IMG/VR virus record: IMGVR_UViG_3300009360_000004
Direction: 5' to 3' (one strand)
DNA length: 42,338 nucleotides
From: a virus
Shown here: positions 3,810 to 42,338 of the stretch, one piece after another
Layout of the letters: each line of letters opens with the position of its first letter
Numbering within the stretch: position 1 is the stretch's first letter
The notes under the pieces: model-generated
Database searches by the model: none
Seen by the model: the letters and a program-made list of their open reading frames with translations, nothing else
What the model was told of the DNA's origin: nothing
Made by a program: the position numbers and the translations under genes

Positions 3810-4715
3810 ATGAATGATTCAATGTATTTGGACTATGAGCTTTACGGCAATTCAGAAGCAAGAGATGAAATATACTATGACAATGGTTGGAAGTTGCTGA
3901 GACGCTGGCACAAAGAAACCGTTACTTTTGCCAGCAACACCGCAACGCTCTCAAAAGTCGGAAAAGGCGATTGTGAAGTCACGGGTGGTGTGGCAGGAGT
4001 CGTATCTGGCACCACCTGCACAGCAACCATCGCGGATGGAGACCATGAAGTTCTGTATATGCTTCTAATTCCTGAAACCACAGAAATTGGTGCGGGTGTT
4101 GGTTTTGCTACTGATAAAGACGGCGTAATGCTAGACCTTCATCAAGCCAAACAGGTCGATGTTTTTGTTGGTGATGGATATACAACCGAATTTACACTCA
4201 CTGAAACCCCGAATGGAACTGCAAGCATTAAGGCATTTGTAAATGGTCTTGAAGATACAGATGTAACCGTGACTACTACTAAGGTTACATTTACGACTGC
4301 CCCACGCCGCAAAGCGTTGGTTGAGGTTGAATATAGTCTTGCGGTCAAGTATCAGGAACCTTTGACGTATTTGGAATATCTCGAAGCCTCAGGAACCGTC
4401 GAAACAGTACCCGCTCTGGTAGATCTCACAGTCACAGAGAACGAAGAAAAGACAGGCTACGTCAACGTTGACGGTGCACCGCTCAAAGTCGCGGGTAACA
4501 AGACGTACACGGTCACAGTCAACAAAGATTTGATCGAGTCTCAGGACAATGTGCTGGAAGAATACAGAGACAAGAAATTCAGGCTCAAAGTTTCGAACTC
4601 AAGAGACTCAAGCAACGAATACCTCGGAGTCTGTCATATCGACCCCGACGCTTCTCTGGATTACCTGAACGGAACTGAATCAATCACGATAAAGTGTGGT
4701 GATCTCTATGATTAG
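3810..4715 (+). CDS. Putative structural (tail) protein, beta-rich, possible Ig-like C-terminal region
   Basis: 301 aa ORF, RBS cggaggtga before ATG 3810; T/V-rich segments (TVTVTTTKVTFTT, KTYTVTVNKD); no RT motifs. Confidence 0.45.
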   Translation: MNDSMYLDYELYGNSEARDEIYYDNGWKLLRRWHKETVTFASNTATLSKVGKGDCEVTGGVAGVVSGTTCTATIADGDHEVLYMLLIPETTEIGAGVGFATDKDGVMLDLHQAKQVDVFVGDGYTTEFTLTETPNGTASIKAFVNGLEDTDVTVTTTKVTFTTAPRRKALVEVEYSLAVKYQEPLTYLEYLEASGTVETVPALVDLTVTENEEKTGYVNVDGAPLKVAGNKTYTVTVNKDLIESQDNVLEEYRDKKFRLKVSNSRDSSNEYLGVCHIDPDASLDYLNGTESITIKCGDLYD

Positions 4716-5148
4716 CCTCGAATACGGCGTTGAAGTGATACAGCTCAAACCTAAAGACTACGAGAACTGGCTCTATTCTCCGAACGCTCCAACCGAGACA
4801 GACGCGGAATCAGGCGAAATCGTTGACAAGTGGGACACCGAGCAAGGTTCGACGTTTCAATACTTCTTGCTCACATGGGATGAGAACGGAGTGGCCACCC
4901 AGAGAGAAGTCTCGAAGCTCTACGACTTCCTGAAAGCGAAGCCGACCGTCGCAAACCCGATGACTCTCACATTCCCGATGTACCGGGAAGATGGTTCACA
5001 GTATCAGGGCAGGTTCTATGTGGTCTTTGCCGACACCGCGGGTGAGCAGCGTTGCCAATTTAATCAGGCTTTGCGCGCACCAGATGGCACGGCGTACTAC
5101 ACCGGAACGGTCGCATTGATCGAGATAGAAAGGAACGACGACGTGTAA
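4708..5148 (+). CDS. Hypothetical acidic protein (tail module)
   Basis: ORF 4696-5148; the ATG at 4708 overlaps the upstream stop; no recognisable motifs. Confidence 0.4.
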   Translation: MISLEYGVEVIQLKPKDYENWLYSPNAPTETDAESGEIVDKWDTEQGSTFQYFLLTWDENGVATQREVSKLYDFLKAKPTVANPMTLTFPMYREDGSQYQGRFYVVFADTAGEQRCQFNQALRAPDGTAYYTGTVALIEIERNDDV

Positions 5149-17886: not shown

Positions 17887-17955
17887 AGTTTTTTCGTAGT
17901 TCTGCTCATAACTTTCCTAGCAGCTCAAGTTTCAACAATGGAGGTTGATACTCCA

Positions 17956-19060: not shown

Positions 19061-19090
19061 CGCCCCCTGGCGAAAGCTGGGGGGCTTTTC
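19061..19090 (+). terminator. Rho-independent terminator with GAAA tetraloop
   Basis: gccccctggc-gaaa-gctggggggc hairpin (about 10 bp stem) followed by ttttctt. Confidence 0.65.
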
Positions 19091-19204
19091 TTGTTGCTTA
19101 TCATATGTATAGATTCGTTACTTATACTTTACTCTACTTTTATTGTAGATAGCATTATATCATGATATACTTTAGTTAAGGAAGCACAAAGAGGAGGGGT
19201 AGAG

Positions 19205-19480
19205 ATGAAAGAGAGAAGAGATGTAGAAGAAATTCTGAAGGCTGGCGAACACGTTGGAGATTACGGAGTCCACTACGAATATAACCCAAAGGTTGAAGAA
19301 GTTGAAGAGAGTGTCTATGACTGGATTGAAAACAAAGGAAGCATCATGTTTCTCGACAGAGAGAAAATCGATTTTCTCAAGAACAGCAACGACAAGTCCA
19401 TAGCCGACGAAATTAACAAGAGAACCAACAACGGCGAAAACATTGGAACGGTTATTGCAGAGATTATGGAGAGGGCCTGA
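19205..19480 (+). CDS. Hypothetical protein (AT-rich island)
   Basis: 91 aa ORF, RBS gaggagggg before ATG; first gene after an AT-rich promoter-like region. Confidence 0.45.
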   Translation: MKERRDVEEILKAGEHVGDYGVHYEYNPKVEEVEESVYDWIENKGSIMFLDREKIDFLKNSNDKSIADEINKRTNNGENIGTVIAEIMERA

Positions 19481-19482
19481 AA

Positions 19483-19890
19483 ATGGCCCAGCTCCTTTTC
19501 AGAACTTCGGATGAACTAGCGAAAGAATACAAGGTATGGTTGGCAAAGAACGAAAGAACGATGAAAGAGCATCTGGAAGAGATAATACTGGCGGAGGTAT
19601 GGAAGATGAGATTCAACGAGAGAGCAAAGGAGGAACTGTTAGACAAAGTTATCTACGAAGGCGAAATCGAAGTCATTGAAAATCTGAAGGTTGAGCCGTG
19701 GTTTCAGGGAAGATTTAAGGAGGCTCCAAACGCTCCGGAAAGGTATTCTTTGTTTCAGGAAATAACCAAAAGAGGCATTGCCAAGCTTTGGGAAAAGGAA
19801 GAGTTCCCAGCGAAGGGTTCGTTCGTTCTTGAAGTTATTCACGAAATCAGCATTAATAACAGAGAGTTCAGACTGTTCTTTGTGGAATAG
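19483..19890 (+). CDS. Hypothetical protein, possible ribbon-helix-helix-like N-terminus
   Basis: 135 aa ORF; N-terminus LLFRTSDELAKEYKVWLAKNERTMKEHLEEIIL loosely resembles Arc/CopG-type RHH segments. Confidence 0.35.
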   Translation: MAQLLFRTSDELAKEYKVWLAKNERTMKEHLEEIILAEVWKMRFNERAKEELLDKVIYEGEIEVIENLKVEPWFQGRFKEAPNAPERYSLFQEITKRGIAKLWEKEEFPAKGSFVLEVIHEISINNREFRLFFVE

Positions 19891-19953
19891 CAACAGCTCA
19901 AATTGCTAGCCTCCCCGAAGGGAGGCTCCACAGAAAACAAAGGGGGAGTAGAA

Positions 19954-20229
19954 ATGACAAAGAGAGAACTGATTTCCATTGTTAGAAAAGAAAGAGAGAA
20001 CTGGGACAACTGCGATCTTGAACCCGCTATCGTGGCGGCACTTGACAGAGACAACTTGTGGGATGCTGCTAGAAAGCTGATCCCTGACGAGTGGCTCGCC
20101 GAAAACGGCGATCTGAACAGGGAAGAAGTGGAGAAAATGGTAGAAACCTACGGTGACGAAAACAGTTTCGATCGCTGGGCAGTCATCCTGTGGCTTTTCT
20201 CGGAGTTTGGCGAAGAGTACGACGCTTAA
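19954..20229 (+). CDS. Hypothetical acidic protein
   Basis: ATG 19954 after aaagggggag RBS (track ORF starts at 19903); ends convergent with the minus-strand gene. Confidence 0.4.
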   Translation: MTKRELISIVRKERENWDNCDLEPAIVAALDRDNLWDAARKLIPDEWLAENGDLNREEVEKMVETYGDENSFDRWAVILWLFSEFGEEYDA

Positions 20230-20849
20230 TCAGTTTCAGAATCATCGGGCGGCTTCGGTCGCCCTTTTATTTTTTCCTGGTAGTATTTTTTGTGATAGCC
20301 AGGGTTCTTTTCTTTGAATTGTTTCTGATACTCCCGGAATTTCTCTTTGTTCTCCCGATAATATTCTCTCATATACTGCCGACGCGCTTCGAGAAACGCT
20401 TCCGGGTTTTCGGCTTTTTTCTTTTGCGCCCAGCGAACGGCGAAGTACCCATGTATCGCGTTGTAGAGTTCAGGATTCTCAGCTCTCAATTTTCTGTCGC
20501 GCTTTCTGGTTCTCGCCTGTTCTTGTTCTCTATGCTCTGCATACCATCTCCGCCCACTCGCACGTTTTCGCTCAGCTCTGCAATCTTCGCACAGCCAGAT
20601 ACGAAAATATTTTGACATTTCAGAGACGTGGAGAATTTTTCCGCAATCTACACAGGCCCCATAGTCAGGTACTTCGCGTTTTTTTCTATGCTTTGCACGC
20701 CATTTGCGCGCGCTGACTCGGTTGCGCTCGGCCCGGCAGTCCTTGCATATCCAGATGCGAAATTGTTTCGGCATTTCGGAGACGTGGAGATTTTTTCCAC
20801 AGTCCATACAGGTTCCATATTCTTGCGTTTCTCGTTTTTTCTTGGCCAT
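20226..20849 (-). CDS. Tandem zinc-ribbon protein with basic C-terminal region (putative regulator)
   Basis: 207 aa, the only convincing minus-strand gene; two ~48 aa copies of YG.C.DCGK.LHVSEM.K.FRIW.C.DCRAER (C-x2-C...C-x2-C); TATAAT-type hexamer 6 nt upstream of the ATG and no Shine-Dalgarno. Confidence 0.6.
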   Translation of the reverse strand: MAKKKRETQEYGTCMDCGKNLHVSEMPKQFRIWICKDCRAERNRVSARKWRAKHRKKREVPDYGACVDCGKILHVSEMSKYFRIWLCEDCRAERKRASGRRWYAEHREQEQARTRKRDRKLRAENPELYNAIHGYFAVRWAQKKKAENPEAFLEARRQYMREYYRENKEKFREYQKQFKEKNPGYHKKYYQEKIKGRPKPPDDSETD

Positions 20850-21443
20850 AGAAAGATTATAGCAGCATCTCTGGCTTCGATAGAAGTAAGAAGATCACCC
20901 CCCAGGATCGCTCAGGTTGCATTTTTCTGTGTGCGGGTATGTATTTGTACCATGCGCCGGAGATCTTTCAACCTGGGGCGTTTTGCGAGGTCACCGGATT
21001 TTGGGAGTCGGTACAGCTTTCGACTGGCCGTCCCGTGGGGCTGCCAGTCTCAAAACCCCGGTTCTTAAATCATAGTCGAAAATAGTCACTTTTTGCCAAG
21101 TTGTGCCAAATTGTTAGAAATCTATGCGCAACTATACGAAACTAGGCGCAATCAGGCGAAACATATAGAAAGAAGTGTATAATCGCGCCTATTTGTGCAT
21201 AGTTGTCTGCAATTAACTTTGCATTACTTGACGCAACTGACTAGAATTGACTTGTAACGATCTTTGACATACACATATCAGGTTCGGGCGCATCCAAAAG
21301 GACGAGCGAGGACGAGGTTCCCTAGCGACTGATGTGTGACTATAAGTACCAAAAGGACGCTGAATCAAGGGTATCCCGCTTTTTTTATTGTGGGGCGCTT
21401 GATTGAGCGCCTTTTTTTATATCAATCGAAAGGAGTGATAAAC
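20850..21443. promoter_or_regulatory. Divergent regulatory region between the minus-strand regulator and the + strand early genes
   Basis: ~590 bp without a convincing ORF; TTGAC-type hexamers (21228-21269), TGTATAAT at 21176-21183, direct repeats ttgccaag / tgccaaattg and gcgcaa; the ORF-track reading frames here lack RBS. Confidence 0.5.
21394..21418 (+). terminator. Rho-independent terminator or attenuator upstream of the 21444 gene
   Basis: ggcgcttgattgagcgcc hairpin followed by seven T. Confidence 0.5.
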
Positions 21444-21632
21444 GTGGAAAGCACCGTGTTAGTCAGCGCCAGGGCGTTTGCGAAAAAGAACGGGATTGAC
21501 CCATGTGTGTTGAACGGCTTGATAAACCAGTACAAGATTAAGCCCGACGCACGATACGGCAAAGCCCGGCTCTTCAGGCCCGAACGCCTTCAGGGCATCG
21601 TCGATAATCTTGAAACCGTAATGAAAAGATAA
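21444..21632 (+). CDS. Small hypothetical protein (possible DNA-binding)
   Basis: 62 aa from GTG 21444, 5 nt after aaaggagtga RBS; the longer track ORF from 21336 spans the terminator hairpin. Confidence 0.4.
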   Translation: MESTVLVSARAFAKKNGIDPCVLNGLINQYKIKPDARYGKARLFRPERLQGIVDNLETVMKR

Positions 21633-30266: not shown

Positions 30267-31166
30267 ATGAGAATCGGTCTGATTGATGTTGATTCGAAGA
30301 TCCCTAACCTCGCCCTGATGAAGCTCTCGGCATGGCACAAAGCGAAAGGAGATAAGGTCGGGTTTTTCAATGCGCTTCAGAGATACGATCGTGTCTATGC
30401 CTCGAAAATCTTCGGCTTCACGGATGACTTCAAATACTGGCCTGGCTGCGAGATCGTAAAAGGCGGCAGCGGATATGACCTTGAGGCAAAACTCCCAGAA
30501 GAGATAGAGCATACTTACCCCGACTATGGGCTTTACGGTTGTGATTATGCTATGGGCTTCATCACTAGAGGTTGCATCCGAAACTGTCCTTTCTGCATTG
30601 TGCCGAGAAAAGAAGGCACGATACGCAAATCTGCTGATTTAGAAGAGTTCTGGAATGGGCAAAAGAGATTGATGCTTCTCGATAACAACATAACAGCAGC
30701 TCCAAAAGTGTTTGAAGAGACTATAAACAAAATTGTCGATTTGAAGATCAAAGTTGATTTTAGTCAAGGGTTGGACGCAAGACTCGTTGATGACAAAAAG
30801 TCGCTGCTGCTGTCGAAAGTCAGGTTGTGGAAGCAGATTCGTCTAGCTTGGGACAACGTAAAGGATGAGAGAGAAGTACTTCTAGGTTTGGAGATCCTTC
30901 TCAAATACAATTCCCCGAAACGCCTGATGATCTACGTCCTCATAGGCTTCGATTCCACGCCCGAGGAAGATCTCTATCGAGTAGAAAGGCTTCGAGAGAT
31001 GAAACTCGACTCTTTCGCTATGCCTTTCGACAGAAGAGATCCATACCAGAGGAACTTTGCGAGGTGGGTCAATCATAAGGCGATATTCAAGAGTGTTTCG
31101 TGGAATGAATACACTGCCAATAGAAAGAAGAGGAAAAGAAATCCGAGACAACTGGAGGTGAACTGA
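30267..31166 (+). CDS. Radical SAM protein with B12-binding-like N-terminal segment
   Basis: 299 aa, RBS gaggaggg; canonical C-x3-C-x2-C (CIRNCPFC) in GFITRGCIRNCPFCIV; N-terminus MRIGLIDVD...NLALMKLSAWHKAKGDKV resembles a Rossmann-like B12-binding segment. Confidence 0.65.
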   Translation: MRIGLIDVDSKIPNLALMKLSAWHKAKGDKVGFFNALQRYDRVYASKIFGFTDDFKYWPGCEIVKGGSGYDLEAKLPEEIEHTYPDYGLYGCDYAMGFITRGCIRNCPFCIVPRKEGTIRKSADLEEFWNGQKRLMLLDNNITAAPKVFEETINKIVDLKIKVDFSQGLDARLVDDKKSLLLSKVRLWKQIRLAWDNVKDEREVLLGLEILLKYNSPKRLMIYVLIGFDSTPEEDLYRVERLREMKLDSFAMPFDRRDPYQRNFARWVNHKAIFKSVSWNEYTANRKKRKRNPRQLEVN

Positions 31167-31494: not shown

Positions 31495-31754
31495 CTGAAG
31501 ACATCACAGTAAAAGTCATACGTCACGATCCAAAAGACCCTTCCCTATACATCACCGGTGACATAGCCGATGCGTTGAGGGTGTTCGACGAGAGGGTAGC
31601 GGCACATTCGCAAACCGGTAGGCTTGTCGTTACAAAAGTCGAGCTGTGGGTCGGAGATAGACTCGTGAAGTATGCTGACAAAGAAGGAGTGTTCGATGTG
31701 AAATATACCAGAGCCGGTGTGTATCAAGGTGTTGAAAAGGAGGCCGCCGAATGA
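31491..31754 (+). CDS. Hypothetical protein
   Basis: ATG 31491 after agaggagg RBS (track ORF starts at 31461). Confidence 0.45.
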   Translation: MTEDITVKVIRHDPKDPSLYITGDIADALRVFDERVAAHSQTGRLVVTKVELWVGDRLVKYADKEGVFDVKYTRAGVYQGVEKEAAE

Positions 31755-32257
31755 GCGATAAGATCCAGGGTTTCAATCCTAACGTAGTTGACGAGATCCG
31801 CACGGTCTTCGACGCAGGAAAAGAGATCGACAGGATAGACATCGAAGATCTCTTCATCGCTATCGACTACTGGCGGCACGGTCAGCAGAAAGAACACGAG
31901 CTGGTAATCCAGGCTTTCAACGCTCAGAAACTCAGCTTCTTTGTGTACCAGTTGAAGTCCGAGCGGACGATGAACACCTCACTTTCACTGAAAGACCAGC
32001 TCAATAACTATGTCTTTGGGTTGGTGGGTGAAGTCGGTGAAGTCGTGGATCTCCTGAAGAAGTTCTTCTACCACGGCCACGAGGTTGATTCCAACAGGCT
32101 CAAAAGCGAACTCGGAGACATTCTCTGGTACGTCTCGGCTGTGGCAAGTCTGTTCGATATCAATCTTCAAGAGGTCGCACAACACAACATCGAGAAGCTG
32201 GAGAAGAGATATCCGAATGGGTTCTCAAGTGAAGCGAGCAAGGGAAGGGAGGGATAG
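31751..32257 (+). CDS. mazG: MazG-like nucleoside triphosphate pyrophosphohydrolase
   Basis: 168 aa; GLVGEVGEVVD and ELGDILWYV match the MazG/HisE EExxE-type motifs. Confidence 0.65.
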   Translation: MSDKIQGFNPNVVDEIRTVFDAGKEIDRIDIEDLFIAIDYWRHGQQKEHELVIQAFNAQKLSFFVYQLKSERTMNTSLSLKDQLNNYVFGLVGEVGEVVDLLKKFFYHGHEVDSNRLKSELGDILWYVSAVASLFDINLQEVAQHNIEKLEKRYPNGFSSEASKGREG

Positions 32258-34066: not shown

Positions 34067-34131
34067 TGTAAACTCACACGGCTTTAATCCCGTGAAATAA
34101 GGCTCAGTAACTTACTAGAGGGAGGGTGCGA

Positions 34132-34518
34132 ATGAAAGTAACTATCGAGCAAGTTGCAGCAATTTGTCACGAAGTAAACAGGGCTTATGTTAATGCAACG
34201 GAGGGTAAAGACGTTCAACCGTGGCACTTAGCGCCACAGTGGCAAAAAGATTCCGCGATTGATGGCGTTAGGTATGCGTCTGAACATCCCGATAACACAC
34301 CAGAGAAAATGCACGATCGCTGGATGAAATATAGGCTGGCTAATGGTTGGGTTTATGGGGAGACTAAAGACGATGAAAAAAAGACCCATCCGTGTTTAGT
34401 TCCTTACTACGAGCTATCGGAGGCACAAAAGGCGAAAGACTATCTCTTTGATGCCGTTGTGAAAGCAGCTATGAATTATCTGAATTGCGACTTCTGCCCA
34501 CCAGCAGGTCGTCTATAA
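34132..34518 (+). CDS. RyR (ryanodine-receptor) domain protein
   Basis: ATG 34132 after agagggaggg RBS; HDRWMKYRLANGWVYGETKDDEKKTHPCLVPYYELSEAQKAKDY matches the RyR-domain signature (W...GW.YG...D..K.HP.LVP...L.E..K..D). Confidence 0.6.
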   Translation: MKVTIEQVAAICHEVNRAYVNATEGKDVQPWHLAPQWQKDSAIDGVRYASEHPDNTPEKMHDRWMKYRLANGWVYGETKDDEKKTHPCLVPYYELSEAQKAKDYLFDAVVKAAMNYLNCDFCPPAGRL

Positions 34519-34580
34519 TCACTACTGCTGGTTTGGTAAAGCCGAACAGGTTTATTCCACGGAAATAAAGTTATAAGGCT

Positions 34581-34652
34581 AGGCACGTAGCGCAATGGCA
34601 GCGCATCCGTCTCATAAACGGAAGGGTAGCGGTTCGAATCCGTTCGTGCCAC
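34581..34652 (+). tRNA. tRNA with CAU anticodon (tRNA-Met or lysidine-modified tRNA-Ile2 type)
   Basis: Hand-folded cloverleaf: 6 bp acceptor stem plus A1-A72 mismatch, D arm gcgc/aatggca/gcgc, anticodon arm tccgt-ctCATaa-acgga, variable loop agggt, T arm agcgg-ttcgaat-ccgtt. Confidence 0.6.
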
Positions 34653-34821: not shown

Positions 34822-34998
34822 TTGAGTCAGGCCATACAATGCGACGAATGTGGAAAGACTGCACATATGACCCATCACTGGCACAAGCTCGACGGGCTGG
34901 ACTTCTGCTCGTGGAAGTGTGTGCGAAGGTTTGCGAATCGAAGGATCAAACAGGATCGGGAGTATCAGAGAGAGAAAGAAGGGATTGAATGCAGATAG
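34822..34998 (+). CDS. Small zinc-binding protein
   Basis: 58 aa from TTG 34822, 5 nt after tggaggt RBS; CDECGK ... CSWKC. Confidence 0.4.
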   Translation: MSQAIQCDECGKTAHMTHHWHKLDGLDFCSWKCVRRFANRRIKQDREYQREKEGIECR

Positions 34999-36155
34999 AA
35001 AAGAAGAAAGTCTCCGACTTAAAGTGTGCTCCATACAACCCGCGAAAGATTGACGACAAAGAGCTTGCAAAACTAAAACGAAGCATCACCGAGTTTGGTT
35101 ATGTAGAACCTATTGTCTGGAATAAACGCTCGGGCTTCGTTGTGGGAGGTAATCAGAGACTCAAGGCATTACGTGAGCTTGAAATAGAGGAAGCCGATGT
35201 CGTGGTTGTTGACCTTGACGACGCAAAGGAGAAAGCTCTCAATGTCGCCTTGAATAAAATCTCTGGCGAGTGGGACTTCATCAAGCTAAAGGACGTATTG
35301 ACTGACATTGACACAGGAGACTTTGACATAGAGCTGACTGGGTTTGATTTGGATGAGATAGGAGAATTGATAGCTTTCGACAAAGAACCTGAAGAAGATG
35401 GTTTCGACGTAGACGCTGCATTAGAAAACACAGAAGAACCCGTGACAAAACGCGGTGACATTTACCTGCTTGGAAAACATCGCCTGATGTGCGGGGACTC
35501 AACTATCAAAGAAGATGTCGAGAAGCTGATGGATGGTAAGAAAGCGGATATGGTGTTCACTGACCCGCCTTATGGGGTGAATTACGATGGCGGCACTAAA
35601 CTACGAAACAAATTAGCGGGCGATGATACCACCGATTTGTACGAGCCTTGCTGCAAAATGGCACGCGATTTCTCGACGAACGAAGCGGCTTTGTATCTTT
35701 GGCACGCAGGGGTGAAAGGGATAGCAGCCGCAGCCGCAGCCGCAGATTGGGTCATTCGTTGTGAGATAGTTTGGAATAAAAACCATGCACAATTCGGCGC
35801 GTTGTCGGCACAGTACAAACAAAAGCACGAGCCTTGTTATTATTGCTACAAAAAAGGAAAGACGGTAAATTGGTGTGGGCCGAAAAACGAAGTAACGGTG
35901 TGGGACGTTGACAGAGCGTTGGTGAATGAATACCATCCCACACAGAAGCCGGTGGAGTTGGCAAAACGCGCTATTCAAAACCACAAAGCGGATTTGGTAC
36001 TCGACTTATTCGGCGGCTCAGGCTCAACACTCATAGCTTGTGAACAGCTCAACCGCATCTGCTACATGATAGAAATTGACGAGCGATACTGCGATGTAAT
36101 CGTAAAGCGTTGGGAAGAATTCACAGGCAAGAAAGCTCAATTGATGAGGAAGTGA
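34989..36155 (+). CDS. ParB-like nuclease domain fused to DNA N6-adenine/N4-cytosine methyltransferase
   Basis: 388 aa; C-terminal motif IV FTDPPYG precedes motif I LDLFGGSGST; N-terminal ~120 aa is ParB/Srx-like. Confidence 0.7.
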   Translation: MQIEKKKVSDLKCAPYNPRKIDDKELAKLKRSITEFGYVEPIVWNKRSGFVVGGNQRLKALRELEIEEADVVVVDLDDAKEKALNVALNKISGEWDFIKLKDVLTDIDTGDFDIELTGFDLDEIGELIAFDKEPEEDGFDVDAALENTEEPVTKRGDIYLLGKHRLMCGDSTIKEDVEKLMDGKKADMVFTDPPYGVNYDGGTKLRNKLAGDDTTDLYEPCCKMARDFSTNEAALYLWHAGVKGIAAAAAAADWVIRCEIVWNKNHAQFGALSAQYKQKHEPCYYCYKKGKTVNWCGPKNEVTVWDVDRALVNEYHPTQKPVELAKRAIQNHKADLVLDLFGGSGSTLIACEQLNRICYMIEIDERYCDVIVKRWEEFTGKKAQLMRK

Positions 36156-42073: not shown

Positions 42074-42338
42074 ATGGCACTCCTGACATTGACGCAATAC
42101 AAAGCACTCAGGGGAATCACAAGCTCGACTCAAGATACTCAACTCACGGCGATAATCTCGGCGGTCGAAGCAGAGATCAAGGGTGTCTGTGGGTACGACG
42201 ATGACGAAGATCTCCCCTCGGCTCTCCAACTCACGGCCTGCGACATGGTGGATCACCAGATGCTGGAGATATCCGGTATCAAGTCTCAGAGTCTCGAAGG
42301 CGCTTCGGTCACATACGAAAGTAGCTATTCTCAGAAGA
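42074..42338 (+). CDS. Head-tail connector/adaptor protein (gp6-like), 5-prime part; continues at 1-180
   Basis: ATG 42074 after ggaggtg RBS; reading frame continuous through the terminal repeat to the stop at 178-180 (about 102 aa in total). Confidence 0.55.
   Translation, partial: MALLTLTQYKALRGITSSTQDTQLTAIISAVEAEIKGVCGYDDDEDLPSALQLTACDMVDHQMLEISGIKSQSLEGASVTYESSYSQK

Follow-up and report, generated by a model that had tools for sequence, protein, structure and literature searches.

The only minus strand gene in the 42,338-nucleotide (nt) phage DNA IMGVR_UViG_3300009360_000004 (the whole of this stretch is called the window below) encodes a 207-amino acid (aa) basic zinc-ribbon protein, here named ZnR. 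Comparison with related phage genomes indicates that ZnR is an optional accessory cassette gene and not a lysis/lysogeny switch; its cassette is of the moron type, and ZnR appears to be related to the N-terminal region of HNH endonucleases. We favor, with somewhat better than even confidence, the reading that it is an autonomously expressed DNA-binding accessory protein, that is, the product of a functional accessory gene rather than a core regulator. An initial annotation of this DNA had proposed that the gene is a candidate switch regulator made from a leaderless mRNA. As described below, the relatives speak against the first of these ideas and strengthen the second.

ZnR converges with a plus strand gene for a 91-aa acidic protein (isoelectric point 4.2), and the two stop codons overlap by 4 nt (TTAA). 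The acidic domain is present in every locus that carries ZnR (the window type, L008, L021 and L029/L028; L numbers designate relatives of the window) and is absent from every locus that lacks it, and by this comparison the two convergent genes constitute a two-gene cassette. In L021 the acidic domain is the C-terminal domain of a protein of the ribbon-helix-helix (RHH) family RHH_1 (Pfam, 28.4 bits against a cut-off of 20.5), and in L029 it is fused to a homolog of a 135-aa protein of the window (p135) whose N-terminus is RHH-like by pattern only. L025, which has no ZnR, encodes the same RHH as L021, with an unrelated C-terminal domain. The intrinsic terminator of the plus strand accessory operon lies inside the last ZnR codons (GRPKPP), so the 3' ends of the two transcription units necessarily overlap, and in L029 the terminator hairpin is kept through two compensatory G-C to A-T changes and one G-T to G-C change. 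Is this pair a toxin/antitoxin-like or defence/exclusion module, in which ZnR is a DNA-binding effector (directed, for example, against host or competitor-phage DNA) that the acidic domain neutralizes? Such an arrangement is suggested by the strict co-occurrence and 4-nt convergent overlap in window-, L021- and L029-type phages, by the complementary charges of the two proteins (isoelectric points 9.8 and 4.2), by the RHH plus acidic C-terminal domain of the L021 protein, which is the classic layout of a type II antitoxin, and by the position of the cassette in a moron slot next to the integrase gene of L029. We nevertheless give it only a small but real chance of being correct: toxin and antitoxin genes are normally co-directional in one operon whereas ZnR and its partner converge, a PADLOC search gave no match, and the sample of lineages is small.

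The evidence that the cassette is optional comes from relatives that were recovered from viral and metagenome collections with a 21-mer from block A, a conserved non-coding element of ~165 nt that adjoins the cassette (megablast of the region against a phage collection, in search of annotated relatives, gave no match). The relatives without ZnR (L016/L017/L019/L020, L022, L024 and L025) all keep block A at 91–98% identity; the early genes of L016, L017 and L020 are 88–93% identical to those of the window, most of block B is kept in L016/L017/L019/L020 and L025, and in L016/L017, L022 and L025 a plus strand terminator directly abuts block A. Since 20895, which is 45 nt upstream of the ZnR ATG, is where homology with these phages begins, the promoter travels with the ZnR open reading frame (ORF), and since they too carry block A, that element is not part of the cassette. 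In the other direction, L001–L004 encode essentially the same ZnR protein, but their DNA corresponding to 21055–21428 has been replaced by other DNA, which includes a gene of family HTH_3 (78 aa) in L001, L002 and L004 and a 564-aa gene in L003. The slot that follows the late/lysis genes (about 19200–20895) is hypervariable, and its cargo differs among relatives between the conserved flank 19080–19216 and block A. The features by which a moron or accessory cassette is recognized are thus present in the ZnR cassette, namely its own promoter and terminator, presence or absence in close relatives, and conserved flanks.

These comparisons bear directly on the proposed switch function, according to which ZnR would bind operators in 20850–21443 and control the early promoter in place of CI. 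Several features would suit a repressor: ZnR is a basic zinc protein, its gene lies upstream of the early region, is read in the opposite direction to all lytic genes and has the leaderless layout of lambda cI, the window contains neither CI nor integrase, and an inverted repeat flanks the TATAAT at 21178. A repressor of the CI type is expected to be co-inherited with its early control region, however, and ZnR is absent from relatives that keep block A and, in several of them, block B and the early genes, and is present where 21055–21428 has been replaced. In addition, ZnR has no match to a helix-turn-helix (HTH) or S24 domain in Pfam, PHROG or NCBIfam and instead resembles the targeting region of an endonuclease, L029 has a ZnR homolog together with a separate CI-type repressor and an integrase, the window genome encodes neither an integrase nor a partition system with which to support lysogeny, and the block A 21-mer found no prophage in a scan of one genome per species for 185,579 bacterial and archaeal species. 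We therefore regard a switch role as very unlikely, and the initial annotation is not sustained on this point.

L029 (IMGVR_UViG_3300033178_000179), a temperate relative found through a neighboring gene, is informative about where the ZnR family resides. Its gene order is an accessory plus strand operon, a one-module ZnR homolog (4264–4647, minus strand) that again converges on that operon with a 4-nt overlap, a gap of ~430 nt that contains the integrase terminator, and then, all on the minus strand, the gene for a 491-aa serine recombinase, one for a CI-like HTH repressor and further genes. The integrase terminator is at 4996–5028 (minus strand), and the gap may hold the phage attachment site attP. 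Because the ZnR homolog coexists with a CI-type repressor there, ZnR does not replace CI, and this layout assigns the ZnR family to the prophage-side block, where it occupies the classical moron position, with the lysis/accessory genes on one side and int on the other. Both int and CI are missing from the window phage. The minus strand position of ZnR reflects kinship with the prophage-side gene block, and in that limited sense the intuition behind the switch proposal was reasonable. The location of the L029 homolog ~430 nt downstream of the serine recombinase gene on the same strand could also mean that ZnR is an accessory factor of a serine integrase, for example a recombination directionality factor (these are diverse small proteins, often basic or zinc-binding), left over in the window phage. 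We find this most unlikely, in that ZnR is under strong purifying selection between the window phage and L021, both of which lack an integrase, has its own promoter just as the L029 integrase has its own terminator, and co-varies with the acidic gene and not with an integrase.

The selection measurements, together with the conserved ligands, indicate that ZnR is a real gene under purifying selection. Comparison with its 85%-identical L021 ortholog gave a ratio of nonsynonymous to synonymous substitution rates (dN/dS) of 0.086 with a dS of 0.79 (dN/dS 0.075 in the zinc region and 0.098 in the tail), all eight cysteine ligands are kept in both repeat copies and in the orthologs, and there are no frameshifts. 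Between copy 1 and copy 2 of ZnR the dN/dS is 0.16 and dS is saturated at 1.28, and copy 1 is orthologous to L021 copy 1 (89% nt identity) and copy 2 to L021 copy 2, so the two modules are old paralogs. The L008 protein (P0002) has one module whose 5' half is like copy 1 and whose 3' half is like copy 2; the two halves join within TCTCCACGTCTC, which both copies contain, and its tail is nearly identical to that of L021 (dS 0.018); it is therefore the product of a recent deletion by unequal recombination and not the ancestral form. Because of these selection data, and because even L029 retains the geometry of promoter and start, it is very improbable that ZnR is a decaying homing-endonuclease relic (a free-standing HNH gene that has lost its nuclease and has no function left), even though it resembles HNH endonucleases in their N-terminal parts, carries a promoter of its own and is polymorphic for presence between near-identical phages.

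The ZnR mRNA is probably leaderless, with transcription starting on its own AUG, a prediction that the sequence and its comparison with relatives support well. The TATAAT that the initial annotation had noticed 6 nt upstream of the ATG, with no Shine-Dalgarno sequence (SD), is in fact part of the extended −10 element TGCTATAAT. The spacer is CTTTCT, and placing the hexamer at −12 to −7 puts the A of the ATG at +1. No SD of the GGAGG type is present upstream of this ATG, whereas most plus strand genes have one, so that the sequence features of a leaderless gene (a −10 element 6–8 nt upstream of an AUG rather than a GUG or UUG, and no SD) are all found here. TATAAT hexamers are not abundant in the window (4 against 6.8 expected); three are intergenic, and the remaining one, at the 3' end of an ORF, is probably the tRNA-Met gene's own promoter. 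TGNTATAAT occurs twice, against 0.54 expected. The TGnTATAAT element and its spacing are conserved in three haplotypes, with TGC in the window and L001–L007 and TGT in L008 and L021, and the geometry recurs in L029, whose homolog (~50% aa identity) has TATAAT-CATCTC-ATG and no SD although its upstream sequence is otherwise different. Because the CI-like gene of L029 has an ordinary SD, the TATAAT-N6-ATG layout is specific to ZnR, and a leaderless start as a general trait of prophage-side genes is ruled out. The gene callers misplaced the ZnR start in relatives (P0002 of L008 is extended and P0004 truncated), which fits a start without an SD. These observations make the leaderless prediction firmer than it was when first proposed.

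That ZnR is the window's only minus strand gene, as first annotated, agrees with base composition: AT skew is negative in one bin only, 20–21 kb, and the ZnR ORF has a purine content of 0.62, as in plus strand genes, while each of the other minus strand ORFs scored has a purine content of 0.50 or less and overlaps a better-scoring plus strand ORF. Between an upstream in-frame TGA and its ATG there is no other possible start codon, and the product is ~24 kDa with 56 lysines plus arginines. The duplication described in the initial annotation is present, but its units are larger than the ~48 aa and ~150 bp given there: the in-frame direct repeat is 156 nt (52 aa), with 73% nt identity and 34 of 52 aa identical, and each unit has one C-x2-C-x17-C-x2-C motif and a basic helix. 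The K/R/E/Y-rich tail was correctly described and consists of helices that are also rich in W and are broken by the caps NPE125, NPE148, NKE167 and NPG182. Structure prediction of the repeat module, a check that had been suggested, was carried out with AlphaFold and gave two (β-hairpin, β-hairpin, long helix) units followed by five helices, with a mean predicted local distance difference test score of 81 and a predicted template modeling score (pTM) of 0.33.

Table 1. Features of the window around ZnR and in the remainder of the genome
Feature	Coordinates	Strand	Remarks
Terminal direct repeat	1–136 and 42203–42338		136 bp
Late-side genes	Endolysin at 17938	+	Also tape measure, 1769 aa; PHROG scans
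TATAAT	19154	−	After a terminator
Acidic partner gene	19951–20229	+	
ZnR coding region	20226–20849	−	dN/dS, purine content
Intrinsic terminator of accessory operon	20247–20274	+	
ZnR tail	20262–20537	−	Five helices, residues ~105–196
Repeat copy 2	20523–20678	−	Residues 58–109; C66, C69, C87, C90
Repeat copy 1	20679–20834	−	Residues 6–57; C14, C17, C35, C38
ZnR ATG	20847–20849	−	The A (20849), 7 bases beyond the −10 hexamer, is the predicted +1
Promoter-bearing end of cassette	20850–20894	−	45 nt
TATAAT	20856	−	ZnR promoter
Extended −10	20856–20864	−	Hexamer 20856–20861; no usable −35
Block A	20895–21060		
TATAAT	21178	+	Early control region
Early genes	21444 to ~36155	+	Two helicases, primase/polymerase, radical-SAM protein, MazG, ParB-methyltransferase fusion
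TATAAT	34514	+	3' end of ORF 34126–34518, 62 nt upstream of tRNA-Met
tRNA-Met (CAT)	34581	+	Rfam; element plus upstream TATAAT span 34514–34652
Late genes	Wrap through window ends	+	Small terminase 36160, large terminase 36470, portal, scaffold, major head protein, tail genes

The window is a complete circular assembly of ~42.2 kb by virtue of its terminal direct repeat, and a 33.8-kb IMG/VR fragment, IMGVR_UViG_3300009362_000005, is 100% identical to it. PHROG scans of its ORFs show a siphovirus-like layout that is otherwise entirely on the plus strand. The earlier statement that it has no recognizable integrase holds for this complete genome, as no large ORF scanned matched an integrase family, and family scans of the ORFs found no CI-type repressor. 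In the early region the genes for a radical-SAM protein (30267–31166), a MazG-like pyrophosphatase (31751–32257) and a ParB-like/DNA-methyltransferase fusion (34989–36155) may relate to nucleotide or DNA modification.

At the left of the variable slot, beyond the late-operon terminator (19062–19095), two extended −10 elements form a palindrome, TGATATAAT on the minus strand (19154–19162) and TGATATACT on the plus strand (19163–19171), and this flank is conserved in spite of the different cargo; the plus strand element would drive the small accessory operon 19205–20229. RHH-type proteins recur at the end of the slot with exchanged C-terminal domains (L021, L025 and L029).

On the other side of ZnR, block A keeps 91–98% identity in at least nine phage variants that have different DNA to its left and right, and we found no coding signal, no RNA covariation and no convincing promoter in it. 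Three candidate explanations of block A were discarded as follows: it was considered as a structured RNA from its plus strand fold (z −2.47), but RNAalifold over nine variants found one-sided changes and no compensatory pairs; a small ORF was rejected because the L017 changes are non-synonymous; and an origin as a host-derived or prophage site was rejected because the one match in the 21-mer scan of bacterial and archaeal genomes, to a Polyangiaceae metagenome-assembled genome of 70% GC, is put down to chance. Block A might act as a regulatory site, serve as an origin or mark a recombination boundary. An Rfam search of the whole window found only the tRNA-Met, and a permissive RNA-family scan of 20800–21500 gave one chance-level match. 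A second mosaic hotspot lies between block A and the first early gene (L001 688–2849, L003 733–2872); in L001 and L002 it holds the HTH_3 gene (78 aa), an HTH_38 gene (341 aa) and a 159-aa gene, the L004 sequence ends after the second gene, and the 564-aa ORF of L003 has no family match. In the window a 24-nt inverted repeat (79% complementary, 21129–21205) brackets the TATAAT at 21178 and looks, by its placement, like an operator over the early promoter. The early-operon leader (21255–21425, plus strand) folds strongly (z −4.06), and a long A-tract/hairpin/U-tract terminator (21351–21420) stops ~20 nt short of the first early gene's SD and GTG. That gene (21444–21632) has a 62-aa product that looks like a small DNA-binding protein and matched no family. 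The leader and its terminator point to control by antitermination or attenuation, or else to a small RNA of ~170–240 nt.

What does the ZnR protein resemble? Its homologs are rare, with two close clusters in a collection of 5.8 billion proteins and 19 matches among 1.84 billion representatives. Most of the 19 are phage proteins of 100–125 aa whose C-terminal ~45 aa (YMxEYYxxNKEKFxEYxxxFKxKNPxY) are the same but whose zinc ribbon differs. In three such phages (two of ~38 kb) the gene belongs to the early region or opens it, and in two of these it adjoins replication genes. Among the Pfam matches, which were listed down to an E-value of 1.8, XPA_N (PF01286) scored 30.2 bits against a cut-off of 27.1, but only as the sum of two half-matches, and a precomputed hit was graded "faint"; the XPA DNA-binding domain (XPA_C) is absent from ZnR, and the XPA match in the Protein Data Bank (PDB) has E 0.51. 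The other Pfam matches are weak zinc-ribbon and treble-clef families. The zf_Tbcl_2 (PF23477; 14.2 against a cut-off of 27) and TIGR04272 (11.8 against 36) scores are below their cut-offs, yet their spacing fits twice: these CxxC-x17-CxxC modules share with ZnR both the cysteine spacing and a CxxCGK...MPK..R...CxxC pattern, and P0005, which has four zf_Tbcl_2 copies, gave a phmmer match to ZnR with E 2.8e-8. No HNH or Ogr_Delta (PF04606) family is among the Pfam matches listed, and ZnR has no HNH (ββα-metal) motif; the idea that its zinc modules are degenerate HNH motifs was rejected, as a spacing of 17 residues does not suffice for such a motif and profiles lend it no support. The DksA/TraR C4 zinc finger was likewise rejected, since only the cysteine spacing fits (phrog_54, E 0.74; no DksA/TraR among the Pfam matches listed). 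Against solved structures Foldseek found nothing at E 0.001 or better (best, the Stc1 tandem zinc finger, E 0.15), a PDB sequence search found nothing below E 0.01 (best, LysW, 0.015), NCBIfam gave nothing useful, and a word-indexed search with the zinc-module profile gave no candidates.

The link to HNH endonucleases comes from several searches. ZnR matches phrog_2255 ("HNH endonuclease") with E 2e-5, HNH or intron-encoded endonucleases make up many of its best Foldseek matches in BFVD (E 1e-4 to 1e-2), and BLASTP aligns it over 135 aa to the N-terminal 130 aa of Roseobacter phage CRP-603 gp19, a putative HNH endonuclease (25% identity, pairwise E 5e-8), such that ZnR ends where the HNH domain of gp19 begins. 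Chlorobiaceae phage CV-1-33 gene20 has tandem copies of a 15-aa unit (REYQRKWRAENPEKV) with an NPE cap as in ZnR.

The accessory-protein reading that we favor would operate as follows. The predicted fold has two C4 zinc ribbons, each with an Arg/Lys helix, followed by an array of short NPE-capped basic/aromatic helices, a layout that appears to match the non-catalytic N-terminal, presumed targeting, part of some HNH endonucleases of phages and giant viruses, with no nuclease domain. ZnR would bind nucleic acid, most likely DNA, and its helices could follow a groove in the manner of STPR repeats. It would form its own transcription unit, read by host RNA polymerase from the extended −10 element to give a leaderless mRNA, and expression from such a promoter would therefore need no phage factor; ZnR might be made as soon as the DNA enters the cell, or constitutively in an L029-type prophage. 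Convergent transcription from the plus strand accessory operon could damp it, and the acidic/RHH-type partner might either work with ZnR or antagonize it. Its role could be in exclusion, takeover or secondary regulation.

Several observations weigh against parts of this reading. The co-occurrence of the acidic domain with ZnR rests on about three independent lineages, and the HNH endonuclease link is weak and composition-biased (25% identity, Foldseek TM scores of 0.2–0.3, model pTM 0.33). The ZnR codon-usage score is 0.04 per codon, against 0.2–0.5 for other genes, which may reflect its K/R/E/Y composition rather than a foreign origin. The promoter assignment assumes sigma-70/sigma-A rules that may not be those of the host, backed by the GGAGG SDs and the placement of TATAAT only, and there may be a weak minus strand promoter within block A, upstream of ZnR. 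L029 carries a second TGATATAAT (4752–4760, minus strand) ~100 nt upstream of its ZnR homolog and may make a longer ZnR transcript alongside the leaderless one. No minus strand terminator was found downstream of ZnR in the window.

A more elaborate combination of these elements, which as a whole we rate rather unlikely, is that ZnR and the acidic domain are a previously undescribed two-protein phage module. ZnR would then be the nuclease-less descendant of a homing-endonuclease targeting domain, with zinc ribbons and an NPE-capped helix array that track along DNA in an STPR-like manner. Its transcript would be leaderless and independent of other factors, so that synthesis is immediate; the acidic partner, RHH-tethered in relatives, would neutralize or redirect ZnR, aided by the 3'-overlapping convergent transcription; and the pair would serve as a secondary immunity, exclusion or host-takeover device with a logic like that, by analogy, of P22 immI.

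For annotation, ZnR is an example of a leaderless basic minus strand protein that faces an early region and looks like a repressor, while close relatives show it to be optional cargo. The retention of TATAAT-N6-ATG across differing flanks makes it a clean test case for leaderless expression in a phage-host pair that has not been cultured, and if the link to HNH targeting domains is true it exemplifies a nuclease-free derivative kept by selection. The partner gene and embedded terminator are concrete handles on the ZnR family, and with 19 matches in 1.84 billion representatives even a basic DNA-binding result would be new information.

Among known systems, the STPR proteins (Bombyx FMBP-1, PDB 5D23) are a family of animal transcription factors with strict 23-residue repeats that have Glu1, Thr/Ser2 and Arg9 (PMC4856987). 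ZnR has no sequence similarity to them, and its repeat lengths are 23, 19 and 15 aa with NPE caps, so it differs from the STPR definition. The zinc-ribbon HNH endonucleases of phages and giant viruses (compare PMC3592412) are like ZnR in having an N-terminal C4 ribbon, tandem basic/aromatic helices with N-(P/K)-E caps and a patchy distribution among close phages. ZnR differs from these enzymes in that it has no HNH domain, has two ribbons rather than one, is a stand-alone selected gene and has an acidic-domain partner. P2 Ogr and P4 Delta are small C4 zinc-finger activators of phage late genes, Delta being a covalent tandem duplication of an Ogr-like unit, and the relation of Delta to Ogr parallels that of the two-module ZnR to the one-module L008 and L029 forms, but ZnR has a different cysteine spacing, a long helical tail, and a position and conservation that are not those of a late activator. 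Leaderless transcripts are made for phage repressors such as lambda cI from PRM and several actinophage repressors, and ZnR is like these genes in that its −10 element puts +1 at the A of AUG, it has no SD and it is on the strand opposite the lytic genes; unlike them it has no HTH, is not tied to the immunity/early region, is dispensable in relatives and coexists with CI in L029. Morons, or lysogenic-conversion cassettes, sit between the lysis module and attP-int of temperate siphoviruses. Although the window phage has no integrase and the cargo of the ZnR cassette is a predicted nucleic-acid-binding protein in a convergent gene pair and not a toxin or surface factor, the cassette resembles morons in its slot in L029, its autonomous promoter, its boundary terminator and the variable cargo found between the same conserved flanks.

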